Below, one piece after another: positions 3,336 to 21,083 of a DNA stretch of 64,000 nucleotides (position 1 is its first letter; each line of letters begins with the position of its first letter). The DNA comes from Nitrospirota bacterium. Its GTDB lineage: Bacteria; Nitrospirota; UBA9217. The notes under the pieces are model-generated. The model did no database searches. It saw nothing but the letters and a program-made list of their open reading frames with translations, and was not told the DNA's origin. The stretch lies in the NCBI GenBank assembly GCA_963796285.1, contig CAWCKW010000006.1:128001-192000 (forward strand). The letters are read 5' to 3'. Position numbers and translations under genes: made by a program.

Positions 3336-3385
3336 GATCAATTTCCCATTCGGCCTTCACGGAAGGTTGCGTAGAGGAGAACACA

Positions 3386-5650: not shown

Positions 5651-5744
5651 GGTTCGTTGCGGAATGCGGATTGTGCAAAGCGGAACGAAGAACAAGCACT
5701 ATCGCTGGCCTCATAGAGACGATGGTTTCCTCGTAAATAACCCA

Positions 5745-5773
5745 TTGACAGAACAGGTTTAATGTGGTATTTT
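5745..5773 (+). promoter_or_regulatory. Sigma70-type promoter of tRNA-Asn
   Basis: TTGACA-17 bp-TATTTT with extended TG. Confidence 0.65.
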
Positions 5774-5804
5774 TCCAGCCTGATTTCCTTCCCAAAACCG
5801 ATAT

Positions 5805-5880
5805 TCCCGGATAGCTCAGCTGGTAGAGCGGGTGGCTGTTAACCACCATGCCGCAGGTTCGAGTCCTGCTCCGGGAGCCA
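5805..5880 (+). tRNA. tRNA-Asn (GTT)
   Basis: 76 nt cloverleaf: acceptor TCCCGGA/TCCGGGA, anticodon arm GGTGG-CTGTTAA-CCACC, GGTTCGAGTCC T arm, encoded CCA. Confidence 0.97.
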
Positions 5881-7476
5881 ATCAAGTCCAAAACTGGGCA
5901 CTCTCCCTCTCATTGGGGATCGGGTGCCCAGTTTTTTTCCTGCAATAGCCGCAGCCAGCGCCACATGACTTCCACGGACACAGACCCTGTTGCCCTCGAC
6001 CTTGATTTCATCCACAAGCAGCCTTAAATACTCTTTGCCGAACGAAGGGGAGGACTTATCCAACAGCTTGCGTTTCAACGACGAGCAGAAGGCATTGACA
6101 TGGCCCGGTTTGATATGATCCAAAGGCAACTCTTGTTCACGCCGCAGACCCGCGATTTCTGTTAATATTTCTTGCCGTCTGGCTTGATGCTTGTGGACTC
6201 GCTCCTGTAAGGTAACATCCAGCGGCAGCAAACCTTTCTCAACAGCCTCATACAGACGATCAGACTGGGTTTTGAGGTTATCCAGTTCTTTTGTTAATGC
6301 TTTCAACTGGTCATTGTGCGAGGAGCCGGATTTCTTCTGAGCATGTAACAATTCTGTCAACATGGTTTTGACTCGCTCAGGTTTAAAGACGCGATCCGCG
6401 ACAGCCTGTAATACAAGACCGTCCAGTTTTTCCATAGGGATATTATTGCTCTGGCAGGTCTTGCTTCCTATCTGGTTGATCCGCGTTGAACACTTGTAAT
6501 AGTGATACTTCCCGCTCTTGCCGGTTGCAAGGGTCATCCTTGCCCCACACTCCCCGCACCGAAGAAGGCCGGTCAGAAGGGTAGGAGAATTCACGATCCG
6601 AGGCGGCACCTTTGCCGGAGAACGGTCAACGCGGCGCTGAGCTGCGAGGTTGAAGGTCTCAATGTCAATTATCGGCTCTACAGCAATCTGCACCCATTCA
6701 GATTGAGGCTTGCGCTTTCTGGTTTTCTTTTCAGTTTTATTAAAAAAGTATTCGCCAACATAGGTTCGATTGGCAATGAGGTCATAAACAAGAGTCTTGT
6801 TCCACTTTCTGCCTCGCATAGTAATGCCCCGGTCATTAAGAAGGGAAGCAACGCCCTTTACTCCGAGCACCCGGCCTTGATGACCGTACAGATACAGCTT
6901 GAAAATATCCTTCACTATGGTTGCTTCTAACGGGTCTATTACAAGTTGTTTCTTATTACCTCTTCTACCTTGCAGCGGAAATTCTTTCGTTCCATAGCCG
7001 TAAGTAGGTTTTGAACCGTTAAAATAACCTTGCCGTGCGTTCTCTTTCATTGCGCGAAGTGTGTGTTTCGAGTTTTCCTTGCTCTGATACTCATCGAACA
7101 AACCGAAAATGCCCCTTGCCATCTCGCCGGCGGAATCATCGCCTGTTTGTTGAGTGATAGAGATTAAGTTGACTCCGTGTTTCTTTAGACGTCGATCATA
7201 AATGGCAAGCTGGACATGATCCCGAAAGAATCTCGAAAGACTATGCACGATTAACGCACTATATGGAGCAGGCTCGGCGCAGGCATCGGAAATCATTTGC
7301 TGAAATACCGTCCTTTTGTCATCCATGGCCGAGGCTCCCGGCTCGATATATTCCAACGCCACACTGTGGCCATGCGCCTTGCACCACTCACGCATTTGAC
7401 GCAGCTGATCAGGAATAGATAAATCTTTCTCAGCCTGTCTACTAGTTGATACTCGTGCATAGAGAGCTACTAACAT
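5839..7476 (-). CDS. Large serine recombinase (integrase)
   Basis: YARVST catalytic Ser, SRFFR, recombinase domain, zinc ribbon (CGECG...YYKC...C), coiled coil; GAGGAG RBS before ATG 7476; C-terminus read from antisense tRNA. Confidence 0.93.
   Translation of the reverse strand: MLVALYARVSTSRQAEKDLSIPDQLRQMREWCKAHGHSVALEYIEPGASAMDDKRTVFQQMISDACAEPAPYSALIVHSLSRFFRDHVQLAIYDRRLKKHGVNLISITQQTGDDSAGEMARGIFGLFDEYQSKENSKHTLRAMKENARQGYFNGSKPTYGYGTKEFPLQGRRGNKKQLVIDPLEATIVKDIFKLYLYGHQGRVLGVKGVASLLNDRGITMRGRKWNKTLVYDLIANRTYVGEYFFNKTEKKTRKRKPQSEWVQIAVEPIIDIETFNLAAQRRVDRSPAKVPPRIVNSPTLLTGLLRCGECGARMTLATGKSGKYHYYKCSTRINQIGSKTCQSNNIPMEKLDGLVLQAVADRVFKPERVKTMLTELLHAQKKSGSSHNDQLKALTKELDNLKTQSDRLYEAVEKGLLPLDVTLQERVHKHQARRQEILTEIAGLRREQELPLDHIKPGHVNAFCSSLKRKLLDKSSPSFGKEYLRLLVDEIKVEGNRVCVRGSHVALAAAIAGKKLGTRSPMRGRVPSFGLDWLPEQDSNLRHGG
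5873..5882 (+). repeat. attL core (3' end of tRNA-Asn)
   Basis: GGGAGCCAAT identical to 11192-11201. Confidence 0.85.
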
Positions 7477-7637
7477 AGTGTTTACTCCTCTTCTTGAGAG
7501 CATTGTATAAGAACATCTTTTATTATATCCGATAAATGTGATTGCAAAAGCCTGACCTCATTTTCAGTTATACGATCATTAGATAACTGGATATCGACTT
7601 CAATTATTATCGGCTCAGGTTTCCTCTTTTCGCTCAA

Positions 7638-7865
7638 TCATGGCGCACCGCCTTCTTTGCTCAATGTCCTGCCCGATCCGTCCCATTCCTGACCACATGT
7701 TACCCGTGTTAACTCTTTTACAAGCCCATCTCTGCCAAATTCGCTTAATACAAGCAAACGAAATGTAGAATATTGACTCGGTGTTAATGGCAATAATTCG
7801 GCATAACGTAGAATATTCTTTAGTCGTGCGCTGACGAGGTGTTCTATTTGCTCTTTAGTTACCAT
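7638..7865 (-). CDS. 75-aa hypothetical protein coupled to rep (candidate directionality factor)
   Basis: ATG overlaps rep stop (ATGGTAA); lies between rep and integrase. Confidence 0.6.
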   Translation of the reverse strand: MVTKEQIEHLVSARLKNILRYAELLPLTPSQYSTFRLLVLSEFGRDGLVKELTRVTCGQEWDGSGRTLSKEGGAP

Positions 7866-8950
7866 TTTCCCAGTTGCATTTCCTTGACACGCCGCTTCAC
7901 TTCCACATCCCAATCAAGGTATTCATGAACCCTACGCAGCTTCAGCCCGAAATGATCCAATGCCGCTTTATATCCAATGACCGGCAGACCGGATTGAATA
8001 CAATAAACCGCACCGACTCGTTTTAAATAGCCGTACATCGCGATGACCATGCGCATCATGCGTTCTTCTAAAATAGCTTCATCGTCGTAAGCATTGCACA
8101 CGCCGAGATGATTCAACATTCCGATTTCTTTCTGTAAGTCTTGCCATAAAGGATGAAGCGGCCAGCGGGATCGGTGGGAATCTCCGTTTGATTGCCTCAG
8201 AGTATCATGTTCATGAGAAAGATAACGCAGCAGGTCGCCATGCTGTCCTTGCAGGTCGTCGAAAGACACTATGCCGAAGCGCTTTAATATTGCCTTCCTA
8301 ATCTGCCATTCAATGCGCCAGACATTTTCCTTTTGTCCCCATAAGTTAAAGAACCAGACCTTGCCGCTCTCTTGCTCGATTTCAGCGACCTTATCATAGA
8401 CGCGAAGCACAATATCACCTTTGCCGAGAGTGAAAGTCTGCACCTTGCCGTTTTCACGGTGCTGGCTGTCCTTCCTAGAACGACTGACAAAACTATCCAA
8501 ATTAAAATCAACAAGAGGCAGATTATAATCAAAGGTGAAATCCACGCGGGAGAGCTTTTCCGATATAATTGGCTCAAAGCCGATAGACCTGGCCCACGAT
8601 AAAAACTTATCGTGCAGGATAAAGGCCGATTGACGCCAAAGCGCTGCGCTCCTAAACGTAACGTAAAAATTAGGCGACATGAATTCGCTGATCTCTATCT
8701 TGAAATCATTGTTTACAATAACGAAGGTATAGCCGGAGGATGTTCCGTAAGGTTGTAACAGAAATTCAGAATCGCCGAGCTTCACAGGCAGAGGATGTTT
8801 CCTTTTCGATTGACGAATTGTCTCTTTTTGCTCAGCAAGCCTTTGGAAATCGAGGCCCGACTGCCCTGCACTCTGAAGGTAATAAGCGCATTGAACGGTA
8901 TCAAGACCATGAAGAATTAATTTGATTTTATCTACAGTCATTTTAATCAC
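7859..8950 (-). CDS. Rep_trans-family replication initiator/relaxase
   Basis: GLDTV, LSRVDFTFD, TFTLG, LRVYDK (catalytic Tyr), WRIEWQIR. Confidence 0.88.
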   Translation of the reverse strand: MIKMTVDKIKLILHGLDTVQCAYYLQSAGQSGLDFQRLAEQKETIRQSKRKHPLPVKLGDSEFLLQPYGTSSGYTFVIVNNDFKIEISEFMSPNFYVTFRSAALWRQSAFILHDKFLSWARSIGFEPIISEKLSRVDFTFDYNLPLVDFNLDSFVSRSRKDSQHRENGKVQTFTLGKGDIVLRVYDKVAEIEQESGKVWFFNLWGQKENVWRIEWQIRKAILKRFGIVSFDDLQGQHGDLLRYLSHEHDTLRQSNGDSHRSRWPLHPLWQDLQKEIGMLNHLGVCNAYDDEAILEERMMRMVIAMYGYLKRVGAVYCIQSGLPVIGYKAALDHFGLKLRRVHEYLDWDVEVKRRVKEMQLGKW

Positions 8951-8985
8951 TAAAGTGAATGCTCATTAACTTCGCAAGCATTTTC

Positions 8986-9291
8986 TTATTTATTCTTCTT
9001 AGTTCGCTTCTTAATCTCCGGTTCGTTTTTCTCTTGACCAAATAAGTCCAGGACTTTATTTGCAGCTTCTTCATTCAAACCAAAAGCCTTCATGATTTTC
9101 GGTCTCATATATCTATGGACTTCTAAAAGGTCCGGGTTATTCTTAAGAATTCGTTTTAACTCCCGGTTATCGCTTGTTGATGCGCATATCATCACCCAAC
9201 GAGCAACCGCAGACATACTAATCTTTCGTGGTAATTCACGAGCCGCAGCATAGCTAGAATCGTCTAAGTATATGTTAGTTCTTACTGCCAT
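8986..9291 (-). CDS. Ribbon-helix-helix (CopG-like) regulator
   Basis: N-terminal RTNIYLD strand then helices (ISMSAVARW); GGAGGG RBS before ATG 9291; first gene of rep operon. Confidence 0.65.
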   Translation of the reverse strand: MAVRTNIYLDDSSYAAARELPRKISMSAVARWVMICASTSDNRELKRILKNNPDLLEVHRYMRPKIMKAFGLNEEAANKVLDLFGQEKNEPEIKKRTKKNK

Positions 9292-9331
9292 TGATTCACC
9301 CTCCCTTGGTTTATCTATACCACACGTAGCA

Positions 9332-9360
9332 ACATTAACACACATGACACACCTTGTCAA
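9332..9360 (-). promoter_or_regulatory. Promoter of RHH-rep operon
   Basis: Minus strand TTGACA-17 bp-TAATGT; spacer contains repeated GTGTGT (possible operator). Confidence 0.65.
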
Positions 9361-9416
9361 GCAAGAAATAATTAGTAAGTTCAGATATGGCTATAATAGA
9401 TAAACCCAGGCACACT

Positions 9417-9449
9417 GGCCTTCCCCTCGCTTCGCTCCGGGGAGTGGCC
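9417..9449 (-). other. GC-rich hairpin, candidate single-strand origin
   Basis: GGCC-TCCCC...GGGGA-GGCC arms with GAGCGAAGCGA on minus strand. Confidence 0.45.
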
Positions 9450-9547
9450 TCTTCCGACGTAATTCTAAACAATTATTGACATATATCAACAAACGTGATT
9501 ATATATCCTTGTTTTATAACACTGACCAGAAGGAAGATGGATTTATC

Positions 9548-9572
9548 ACCCCCCGTGTTACTGATCCGGGGG
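9548..9572 (-). other. Candidate double-strand origin/oriT nick site for Rep_trans
   Basis: Minus strand CCCCCGGATCAGTAACACGGGGGGT: poly-C/poly-G stem around TAACA, as in Tn916/ICEBs1-type nick sites. Confidence 0.7.
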
Positions 9573-9653
9573 CCGAAGGCGCAGGATGTTAGGCATTCTT
9601 CTTGCTAAACTGGTAAAGAACGAAAATTCGTGCTTTACTAGCCATGTGCGGCT

Positions 9654-9672
9654 AGATAATCACTGGTTAGTC
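9654..9672 (+). other. attI-like cassette insertion site
   Basis: AGATAAT (L-like) + 5 bp CACTG + G/TTAGTC core. Confidence 0.65.
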
Positions 9673-10607
9673 CGGAGTAAAAAATGAGATATTCAATAAT
9701 AATTGCTATCTTGCTTTATAGCACGACATCGTTTGCTGAAGACCCGCAATTGTCGGCAGACAAAAAATTGGCTGATCTATTATTCCCATCAGAAAGCAGC
9801 GTCCAACTGGAACAATTTCCCGTGCTAACGGAAGCAGAATTCAATCCAATTAAGGATAAGGTTTTTAAACAATTAGATTCAGATGCCTGTCACATTATTT
9901 CCACTAGCGACACACCGCACGAGTTCTTCCGTAAATATGATTTGTCTGGTGCTGGTGTTGATGATGTGATTCTAAGTTCCTATTGTGCGGCAATGGAATA
10001 TAGAAACTTTATCTGGTTTCGCAAGGGGAATTCATTAAAATATGCCGGCTTCATGTTGGGCACGCCGTTAAAATATTACCGCCCCAGTAAGTCGGAACCT
10101 TATTCAATTGTAGTAAGTGAAGGTTGGTGCTGTGCAGGTTTTGTCGGCAAAATCAGCCTCTACAAACTGAAAGAAAATCGTGGGCTTTATAAATATAAAC
10201 TTGAAAAAAGAGTAATGGAATGGGGCGGAATCACAATTCCTGACAAACGAATAGCCCCCGTTAAGTTTAAAATTAAGTCTGAAAAATACGCCCTAAGAGA
10301 TTCGCCGGAAATTCGTAACGAACCAATTGACGACATTCCTGGCGGGAAAAAACAAATCGGAAATATTATCGCGGAATTTCCACGTGGTAGCCAGGGAGAG
10401 GCAATAGCAGCGGATAAAGACAAGACAGGCCAGATCTGGTGGTTTGTTCTGATGGATAAAGATTCAAAAACCATCACTACTCTTTTTTATGCCGATAACG
10501 GAGCTTATAAAGCTGGATGGATGAGACAACAAGATCTTGAAATAGCCAAATGAAGACCAACCAGTCGTTCGAGTCCCGCGCTCTACGGCGCGGGGCTCAA
10601 CTCGTCG
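9667..10607 (+). mobile_element. Integron gene cassette 1
   Basis: Starts TTAGTC, single ORF with RBS, ends in attC whose GACCAAC is near-complementary to GTTAGTC. Confidence 0.85.
9684..10553 (+). CDS. Secreted hypothetical protein, C-terminal SH3b-like region
   Basis: Signal peptide MRYSIIIAILLYSTTSFA; C-terminal LRDSP...IAEFPRG...WWFV...GWM pattern. Confidence 0.8.
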   Translation: MRYSIIIAILLYSTTSFAEDPQLSADKKLADLLFPSESSVQLEQFPVLTEAEFNPIKDKVFKQLDSDACHIISTSDTPHEFFRKYDLSGAGVDDVILSSYCAAMEYRNFIWFRKGNSLKYAGFMLGTPLKYYRPSKSEPYSIVVSEGWCCAGFVGKISLYKLKENRGLYKYKLEKRVMEWGGITIPDKRIAPVKFKIKSEKYALRDSPEIRNEPIDDIPGGKKQIGNIIAEFPRGSQGEAIAADKDKTGQIWWFVLMDKDSKTITTLFYADNGAYKAGWMRQQDLEIAK

Positions 10608-10613
10608 TTATCT
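10555..10613 (+). repeat. attC site (59 bp)
   Basis: GACCAAC-5-GTTCGAG-TCCCGCGC..GCGCGGGG-CTCAAC-5-GTTATCT; extrahelical C in L''. Confidence 0.92.
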
Positions 10614-11145
10614 CCCCAAGTTGAAGGAAGGGGTCACACCATTAATACTGAAACAGCTCAACAGAATAGAGAACTTCGAGGAAATCCATACGACAAGTGG
10701 CTTGTCTGGGGTCCAGTCCTCGCAGGCGCTCTGTTGCCATACACGATATATACTCTATTCAATCCAAAGTTCCTGCTAGATATAGCCAAAACACCAGATG
10801 AGCTTGTGATTATGAGCATCGGCGCGATCATTTCTGATATTCCTTTCTTCGTTGTAGCCTTTTTCGCAAACGGTGACAAGAGTCGTAATTATAATCTGAG
10901 AAGGCGAGTTAGCAATACTGCCATACGATTCCTACCTGTATTCGGAATATATGCCTTTCTGCTTTATGATGTAGCAAGGGCAGCTGCTCTTAGACTGCCA
11001 GGTGCGTCAACGGCACCGATCGCTTTATTAATATTCCTGCCAATTGCCGTGTTGCTCGTATTTGTATTACAGCTGATCACCAAAGCTATTGAAAGATAAC
11101 CTGGCGCTCGACTGCGACGCGCAAAGTCGGCGCGTCAGCGCCGCG
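10608..11145 (+). mobile_element. Integron gene cassette 2
   Basis: Starts TTATCT; inverse core AGATAAC is the exact complement of GTTATCT and contains the ORF stop codon. Confidence 0.88.
10641..11099 (+). CDS. Hypothetical integral membrane protein (~4 TM), probable ATT start
   Basis: Frame is open upstream of TTG 10734 to ATT 10641, which follows AAGGAAGGGG; hydrophobic segments. Confidence 0.7.
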   Translation: MNTETAQQNRELRGNPYDKWLVWGPVLAGALLPYTIYTLFNPKFLLDIAKTPDELVIMSIGAIISDIPFFVVAFFANGDKSRNYNLRRRVSNTAIRFLPVFGIYAFLLYDVARAAALRLPGASTAPIALLIFLPIAVLLVFVLQLITKAIER

Positions 11146-11151
11146 TTAAAG
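11094..11151 (+). repeat. attC site (58 bp)
   Basis: AGATAAC-5-GCTCGAC...GTCAGC-5-GTTAAAG; extrahelical C. Confidence 0.9.
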
Positions 11152-11191
11152 TGTGATTATTTCATTCCATTGCCCTGTTTCATCATGTCCG

Positions 11192-11201
11192 GGGAGCCAA
11201 T
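11192..11201 (+). repeat. attR core
   Basis: GGGAGCCAAT repeat of tRNA 3' end. Confidence 0.85.
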
Positions 11202-11206
11202 TTTAC

Positions 11207-11237
11207 AAAAAAACCAGAATTCAATTCTGGTTTTTTT
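11207..11237 (+). terminator. Bidirectional terminator, probably the displaced tRNA-Asn terminator
   Basis: AAAAAAACCAGAAT-TCA-ATTCTGGTTTTTTT immediately after attR. Confidence 0.75.
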
Positions 11238-11535: not shown

Positions 11536-12240
11536 TCATATGCCAAGACCGGCATGCGATTTGGGTGCATTTGTATCTATATACGCTTCCAAGGTCTTTG
11601 CTGCTTCAGGAGGAAGGTTTAAGAAGTGCACGCCATACCAATTGGCATCAACTCCCGGCACCGGTTGGATGATCCTGATGATCTCTCCTGTTAGCTGGAT
11701 CTGTGTCGTGTTGGGCAGGAAGAACGAGCAGGAGAGCCTGTCGCCTTGGTTGAAGGTCTGGATAGTTTCAATGAGCATTCCGGCAAGGCTGATATCCAGG
11801 GAGTTACAGACAAAGTGGTTGGTGCTAACAGTCCCTTCAACGGCAACGTTGAGAAGCACTCGGTATGTTTCTCTCCAGGAGAGATTAAGGAGTGTTTTTG
11901 CCTGTGCCAGAAGTTGGGCGGGTTTAAAAGGTCGAGTAATAACGGCTTCTGCTTTGCAGTGCGAGCTCTGTTTGAGTGCGCTCTTGGTGTTTGCACAGAC
12001 TAGGATTATGGATACTGGACTGTGTTCTGCATACTCCCTGAGAAGAGAGCAGAGCTGCTCAATGCCCATCCCCGGCATGTCAAAATTTATAATAATGAGG
12101 TCAGCGCGCACCGTGCGATGGATCTGCAGCACTTCATCAGTTGAGGCCGACGTGAATATCCGCATATCCGCCCGGTCTAAGAAGGTGTTTTTTTTCCTGA
12201 GTATCGTGTTTATGTCCTGATCAAGGATTATTTTTTTCAT
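11536..12240 (-). CDS. Pseudo-receiver + PilZ domain protein
   Basis: REC-like N-terminus (DLIIINFDMPGM, TRPF); PilZ RETYR and DISLAG motifs, YGVHF. Confidence 0.85.
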   Translation of the reverse strand: MKKIILDQDINTILRKKNTFLDRADMRIFTSASTDEVLQIHRTVRADLIIINFDMPGMGIEQLCSLLREYAEHSPVSIILVCANTKSALKQSSHCKAEAVITRPFKPAQLLAQAKTLLNLSWRETYRVLLNVAVEGTVSTNHFVCNSLDISLAGMLIETIQTFNQGDRLSCSFFLPNTTQIQLTGEIIRIIQPVPGVDANWYGVHFLNLPPEAAKTLEAYIDTNAPKSHAGLGI

Positions 12241-20945: not shown

Positions 20946-21083
20946 TAGTGATTATGCCGCTTTTCTGATAACAGAAGAGCGGTTTAACTGTTTCATGCTT
21001 TATACAGCTCGGCGCTTTTCAGTGAATACCATTAAAAACTATAAATAATAATAAGATATAAGCAGGAGGGGGGTGTAGAGAGG

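Follow-up and report, generated by a model that had tools for sequence, protein, structure and literature searches.

To our knowledge, the attI sites of integrons are essentially uncharacterised beyond a few clinical and Vibrio integrons. In attI1 of class 1 integrons, several repeated short motifs lie upstream of the crossover. The origin of cassette clusters without an integrase is debated, and these clusters are regarded either as decayed integrons or as products of insertion at secondary sites. Clusters of attC sites lacking an integron-integrase are termed CALIN, and loss of the integrase, rearrangement and insertion at secondary sites are listed as their possible origins by the authors of IntegronFinder (PMC4889954). 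In this program, attI is annotated only where the sequence is identical to a site of classes 1-3 (PMC4889954). Insertion of cassettes at genomic GWT sites (attG) has been shown in E. coli (10.1101/2022.09.11.507474). The stretch of DNA analysed here, hereafter termed the window, comprises 64,000 nt from a Nitrospirota bacterium (assembly GCA_963796285.1, contig CAWCKW010000006.1, positions 128,001 to 192,000). It contains two integron cassettes headed by a conserved 77-nt element (positions 9592-9668, plus strand). Judged from sequence comparison, this element is probably an orphan attI site that belongs to an integron lineage, and a palindrome that appears when the cassettes are removed is probably coincidental. 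According to the titles of the matching records, this lineage lives in Nitrospirota.

The element family occupies the same place as attI1 and the chromosomal attI of Vibrio cholerae, between the divergent intI gene with its promoter and the first cassette. It also shares with known attI sites the G|TT crossover, a promoter directed outward through the site and a size of about 70-80 bp, and its series of short motifs may be likened to the layout of attI1. However, its sequence is unrelated to those of class 1-3 attI, and it differs from known attI sites in that most copies have no adjacent integrase, up to nine copies occur in one genome, and compensatory changes preserve an internal hairpin. 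The array in the window resembles a CALIN, because it has two attC sites, there is no intI in the window and the intI genes of the genome are truncated, but a recognisable element of the attI type and a possible promoter stand at its head. It resembles cassettes at attG in that they are located away from an integron and are inserted at GTT, but differs in that a conserved 77-nt element precedes this GTT, at dozens of loci. A literature search at the level of listings and the beginnings of abstracts turned up no account of Nitrospirota integrons, nor of CALINs with a conserved attI at their head. An attI-type element flags the heads of many integrase-less clusters, with intermediates ranging from a complete integron to a bare site and with differing cassettes at one orthologous locus. 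It provides a sequence handle on the question of present-day use of orphan sites in trans, and its natural variants, with hairpin covariation and three core subtypes, can serve to learn what the integrase reads in attI.

Two cassettes and the conserved element that precedes them

The block from 9667 to 11145 consists of two canonical integron cassettes, both on the plus strand. Cassette 1 (9667-10607) contains an open reading frame (ORF) at 9684-10553, which encodes a protein of 289 aa with a signal-peptide-like N-terminus, and an attC site at 10555-10613, the final six bases of which are part of cassette 2. Cassette 2 (10608-11145) contains a frame open to 11099, which encodes a hydrophobic protein of 121 aa when read from TTG at 10734, and an attC site at 11094-11151. 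Neither protein has a family match in Pfam, NCBIfam, PHROGs or PADLOC. Both attC sites have the layout R''-5 nt-L''...L'-5 nt-R' with AAC/GTT cores and fold as imperfect palindromes with one extra base in L''. R'' of the second site, AGATAAC, is exactly complementary (7/7) to the start of cassette 2, GTTATCT, and the start of cassette 1, GTTAGTC, agrees with the reverse complement of its R'', GACCAAC, at six of seven positions. This layout and this complementarity of R'' are those of integron cassettes bounded by attC. The two sites score 61.7 bits (10555-10613) and 63.4 bits (11094-11151) with R1, a covariance model built from nine attC sites that include these two. A scan of the window with R1 yields only these two convincing attC sites and one further match at E 0.52. 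In the whole genome, 17 matches to R1 are distributed over at least 11 loci as single sites and small clusters, and only the two in the window stand behind the core of the element. The second attC of the window is homologous to the attC that adjoins a truncated intI in the same genome. With two attC sites in the window and no IntI match on its contig (C6), the array is a CALIN by definition.

The anatomy of the element was deduced from an alignment of 40 copies (A3). From 5' to 3', it is composed of GGCAT-N5-TTGC, CTGGTAAAGAACG, the inverted copy CGTGCTTTACTAG, a hairpin CTAGCC-loop-GGCTAG and the core GATAATCACTGG|TT. Its 3' end reads CACTGG|TT, and the crossover is located between G9666 and T9667. 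The preliminary description of this DNA compared AGATAAT-5 bp-GTT, in the left half of the palindrome, to a simple attI site; conservation within the element is indeed highest in this stretch, and the right half of the palindrome is not conserved. The element itself does not behave as an attC site: the arms beside its putative R boxes are direct rather than inverted repeats, AAC is replaced by GGC in many copies, and model R1 gives no match to it. Tandem pairs of elements are observed at two loci (L078, 295-477, and L054, 1420-1589).

Matches to the element are found in 30 of the 64 genomes of the family and in 11 of its 19 genera. One copy follows a tRNA-Asn gene (genome G023) and another lies between a uracil-DNA-glycosylase-like gene (udg) and mutS (genome G018), and each is followed by other cassettes. 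When a collection of species was scanned with a degenerate pattern, 30 stretches were detected, 25 of which belong to records with Nitrospirota, Nitrospirae, Nitrospiria or Nitrospiraceae in the title. The remaining five are outside Nitrospirota, and about four chance matches are expected in this collection for a pattern with 19 fixed bases.

At the loci other than that in the window, attC sites follow the element on the same strand. At a threshold of E 1e-4, they are detected in 15 of a set of 29 loci, for which 1.5 kb was examined, with weak matches in two more, and within 2.6 kb in 15 of 20 further loci. In total, same-strand attC cassettes follow the element at 30 of 49 loci. The set of 29 loci contains one attC upstream of the element and no independent match on the opposite strand, and the element is almost never found inside an array.

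The conservation of the element ends sharply at the crossover. In 45 full-length copies, the information content is 0.9-2.0 bits at positions −10 to −3 before the junction G, 1.5, 1.7 and 1.9 bits at G, T and T, 0.8 bits at the next position, and 0.4 bits or less thereafter. GTT is kept in 38 of these copies, and homology ends precisely at G|TT. When the four variable bases that follow GTT are compared with R'' of the first attC downstream, read as its reverse complement, they agree at 2.45 of four positions on average, as compared with 1.47 in shuffles; none of 5000 shuffles reaches 2.45, and 17 of 33 loci have at least three matches. The collapse of conservation together with this match to R'' indicates that the sequence following G|TT is that of the first cassette and that all these loci share one crossover. 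G|TT therefore marks the border with the first cassette, as in attI. The insertion point proposed in the preliminary description, G9666|T9667, is the one at which these two results place the crossover, and its suggestion of a dedicated capture site agrees with the finding that the conserved element heads arrays in many relatives and stands beside intI in four.

Integrase-linked copies, orphan copies and cassette turnover

Four copies of the element adjoin a divergent intI (G052:C15, G061:C105, G008:C3 and G065:C38). The integrases in the first three are full-length integron integrases with scores of 362, 367 and 353 bits, respectively, against a cut-off of 265, and that in G065:C38 is only a fragment. 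Cassettes with attC follow the element in three of the four. The element family therefore stands where attI is expected, between a divergent intI and the first cassette. The distance from the start of the integrase-model match to the element is 651-773 nt, and the gap between start codon and element is only about 140-280 nt, because these integrases have long N-terminal extensions. The gap contains a sigma-70-like promoter facing the element and a palindrome, GTGAAC-N4-GTTCAC, which resembles a LexA box of the GAAC-N4-GTTC type. On four platforms (L065, about 3350-3375; L122; L123; L046), this palindrome is observed between the −35 and −10 regions of the promoter that faces intI. A box at this place is the arrangement found for integrases controlled by LexA.

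The window's own copy has no intI nearby. Intermediates between these two states are found: a second copy in G008 retains about 700 nt of the 5' region of intI, two orphan copies retain about 215 nt of the platform, and most copies, including that in the window, consist of the element only. In several cases, the contig that carries a full-length intI starts only 178-802 nt ahead of the match to the integrase, at about the place where the element is expected. This observation suggests that assemblies break at the element, which is present in multiple copies.

Turnover of cassettes is found at the udg-mutS locus. This locus contains the element and four cassettes in G018, the element and one cassette in G051, the element and about 3.3 kb of DNA in G052, and neither element nor cassette in G054. 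In both G018 and G051, the element begins 10-12 nt past the stop codon. This shared spacing points to a single ancestral arrival of the element and later changes of the cassettes. No integrase match is found near the locus on these contigs, and an integrase may have acted there in trans. The array in G018 (L019, 553-2457) shows decay of its attC cores, in which GTT is changed to ATT or GCT and AAC to AAA, and the genome G018 has no full-length intI.

Two remnants of integrases are observed elsewhere in the genome from which the window derives. A truncated intI of 203 aa (G000:C12:1310516-1311784; L007, 10516-11784) is followed by a two-gene cassette that has its own attC and by eye looks like a toxin-antitoxin pair. 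Another region (G000:C12:424968-425848) matches only the last part of the integrase model and lies beside two attC matches.

If the element is attI, an integron integrase would have joined the folded attC sites of two circular cassettes to it at G9666|T9667. This insertion would have set the bases TTAGTC... of cassette 1 behind the core of the element and shifted the original right side to 11146 and onward. The cassettes would then be transcribed from upstream through the element. Binding of IntI to the element and the order of these events are what we infer from the arrangement of the sites. Because the platform has no integrase and the genome has only truncated intI genes elsewhere, recombination would have occurred either in trans or before the platform and the integrase were separated. 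More tentatively, and at present rather doubtfully, the element may be a self-contained attI module, many orphan copies of which are served in trans by distant integrases, with the conserved hairpin as a part of what is recognised. If so, several capture sites would operate at once in one genome, the element would be a partly folded attI, intermediate between the classical double-stranded attI and the folded attC, and islands such as that at the tRNA-Asn gene of the window would spread ready-made capture sites.

Evidence against an attI function and alternative explanations

Several results are not those expected if the element is attI. First, for 19 of the 49 copies, the DNA examined contains no attC that reaches E 1e-4 (two of them have weak matches), and one of the four copies adjacent to intI, that in G061, has no attC at a locus that ends 750 nt past the element. 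Second, the genome has no intact intI; its best match covers positions 123-313 of TIGR02249 in an open frame of about 200 aa. Third, in four other complete integrons of the family the full element is absent (no nhmmer match at E up to 10), which means that the element is not the sole type of attI in the family. The array heads of three of these four have core-like ends, GATAATAACTTGTT and TAGTCAATAACTGGTT, with three or fewer mismatches; this similarity is suggestive, and chance hits occur in the same search. Fourth, the possible outward promoter upstream of the element in the window (9477-9505, plus strand) does not satisfy the sigma-70 rule applied. It has a perfect −35 sequence, TTGACA, followed after 17-18 nt by an AT-rich −10 region, with GTGATTAT at 9495, and other copies have better promoters on the same side of the element, TTGAC-N17-TATACT and similar. 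A cassette-like left boundary at G|TTGACA is ruled out, since homology among close copies extends further upstream. Fifth, an internal hairpin with compensatory changes is unexpected for a double-stranded attI and could mean an RNA leader.

The last result speaks for the likeliest of the alternatives. In this alternative, the element is chiefly a regulatory module or RNA leader with a defined structure, or else a cassette without an ORF that was exapted together with its own folded site; it would travel with the arrays and control their expression, and the integrase would read only its terminal GTT. Pairing of the hairpin CTAGCC-loop-GGCTAG (alignment columns 48-53/61-66) is kept through two-sided changes in five of the six pairs, and 89.6% of the cells are paired. 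The covariation score of the whole structure is 0.150, as compared with 0.095 for shuffled alignments (none of 500 reaches 0.150) and at most 0.062 after the partners are slid along. In addition, sigma-70-like promoters are located upstream of many copies, and the unit that all copies share has a sharp left edge as well. At its 5' end (9592-9605 in the window), GG-N10-GC is found in 31 of 45 copies and TGGCA[CT]-N5-TTGC in 12 of 45. GG-N10-GC is the spacing of sigma-54 promoters. GGCAT-N5-TTGC may represent such a promoter, but the copies adjacent to intI in G052 and G061, two of the four, carry AG instead of GG. Against an RNA leader, no Rfam match at the gathering threshold is found in the window and none at E up to 1 is found in 9380-9720, the fold of the window's copy is not unusual (z −1.4), and the first helix of the element is weaker than the hairpin, with 79% of the cells paired and three pairs often unpaired. 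Absence of the element from the interior of nearly all arrays is also against it, and the replacement of AAC by GGC in the attC-like R box of many copies is against an exapted cassette. This alternative is therefore unlikely, although an RNA leader is compatible with attI function and does not exclude it.

It is more improbable still that the cassettes were inserted at an ordinary secondary GTT of the attG type and that the element, for example as a promoter or leader of the downstream gene, is unrelated to recombination. Insertion at GWT sites and the origin of small CALIN/SALIN by this route have been demonstrated in E. coli (10.1101/2022.09.11.507474), and the 17 attC matches of the genome are indeed spread over many loci, only two of them behind the element. 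However, the element precedes different cassettes at dozens of loci, always with the break at G|TT, and it holds the attI position beside intI in four genomes.

The palindrome at the joined junction and the surrounding island

In the window, the left sequence AGATAATCACTGG terminates at G9666 and the right sequence TTAAAGTGTGATTAT opens at T11146, as can be read directly. When 9667-11145 is taken out, ATAATCAC (9656-9663) and GTGATTAT (11153-11160) become the arms of a perfect inverted repeat of 8 bp and are separated by 10 nt. The sequence and the positions of the arms are thus as given in the preliminary description, in which the joined sequence was regarded as a restored empty site. The left arm is inside the conserved core of the element. 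In contrast, the right arm is in unconserved island DNA, 7 nt past the last crossover.

To estimate how often such a repeat arises by chance, random pairs of positions in the window were joined and arms were sought within 20 nt on each side. An inverted repeat of at least 8 bp is obtained at 65 of 20,000 random junctions (0.33%), and at 0.32% of junctions when both positions are taken from the island. When the left arm is held fixed and only the right position varies, it is obtained at 105 of 63,980 positions across the window (0.16%) and at 52 of 5,290 across the island (1.0%). The repeat is thus genuine and nominally improbable, and at P of about 0.003 it is not trivially dismissed as chance. 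The density of the right-arm sequence is a further oddity: GTGATTAT occurs at 9495, 10806 and 11153, within 1.7 kb, as compared with 39 occurrences in the genome of 3.58 Mb. A fourth copy in the window is observed at 20948, and the copy at 9495 is inside the possible promoter upstream of the element.

Comparison with other copies does not reveal a counterpart of the palindrome. None of the 44 other copies of the element has an inverted repeat of 7 bp or more across its own G|TT (20 nt on each side), the longest being six bases, in one copy. Among 47 attC ends downstream of elements, 8 bp is found only at the last attC of the window; none of the 45 attC ends behind elements at other loci exceeds 5 bp, and a counterpart of the right arm is not found among them. 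The array ends in G018 and G051 differ in sequence and do not contain the right arm. The right flank is not an inverted partial copy of the element either, since the match is confined to the 8-mer. Because the palindrome is not seen in other copies or array ends, its right arm is regarded as coincidental, and the palindrome most likely represents a chance pairing of the conserved attI core with an unconserved flank. The comparative data support neither a restored palindromic site nor the proposed single-stranded hairpin that presents GTT in its loop. A functional palindromic empty site, the symmetric arms of which would bind a recombinase on double-stranded DNA or would form such a hairpin, is the least probable explanation of all, because the exactness of the 8-bp repeat, its rarity among random junctions, the location of its left arm in the conserved core and the additional GTGATTAT at 9495 are outweighed by its absence from all other copies and array ends, by conservation that ends at GTT and by the restriction of the likeness between right flank and inverted element to eight bases.

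The preliminary description advised a search for the joined palindrome in cassette-free relatives, the nearest of which are G004 and G001. In G004, which is 94% identical at the left flank, and in G001, both of the same genus, the end of the tRNA-Asn gene is joined directly to the homolog of the sequence from 11192 onward. This result indicates that 5882-11191 is an island of 5.3 kb. Both arms of the palindrome are inside this island, so that these relatives, which do not have it, have no joined site. The tRNA-Asn gene is located at 5805-5880. The island is bounded by direct repeats of GGGAGCCAAT on the plus strand, at 5873-5882, at the 3' end of the tRNA gene, and at 11192-11201, next to which a terminator-like palindrome is located at 11207-11237. 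This 10-nt repeat is part of a 19-nt stretch that is 79% alike between the two ends. The island contains a large serine recombinase of 554 aa (5839-7503, minus strand), two unnamed ORFs and, at the far end, the element with both cassettes. The recombinase matches the Pfam families Resolvase, Recombinase and Zn_ribbon_recom at E 2.5e-26 to 3.9e-17, and it is the only protein of the island and the cassettes that is named by searches against Pfam, NCBIfam, PHROGs and PADLOC. Its reading frame extends into the tRNA gene, and no tyrosine integrase is observed in the island. Repeats at tRNA 3' ends are more usual for tyrosine integrases. A related island in G002, with 80% identity over 5735-8797, is interrupted by the end of the contig.

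An upstream module of about 45 nt (9546-9591, plus strand), which consists of a hairpin CCCCCG...CGGGGG and GATGTTAGGC and includes GTTAGGC, is common to the window, G023, G067 and G047 and lies outside the unit common to all copies. GTTAGGC (9588-9594) overlaps the start of the element and was previously considered as an accessory IntI site. This possibility is not borne out, as GTTRRRY is found at the equivalent place in only four of 45 copies. A decayed module with half an element is observed elsewhere in the genome (G000:C12:647945-647976; L124, 1460-1502).

A further difference from the closest relative, G004, is observed beyond the right boundary of the island. The segment 11415-12861, which comprises a gene on the minus strand (11536-12240) that encodes a PilZ-domain response regulator and the flanks of this gene, is missing from G004, which has 27 nt in place of these 1447 nt.

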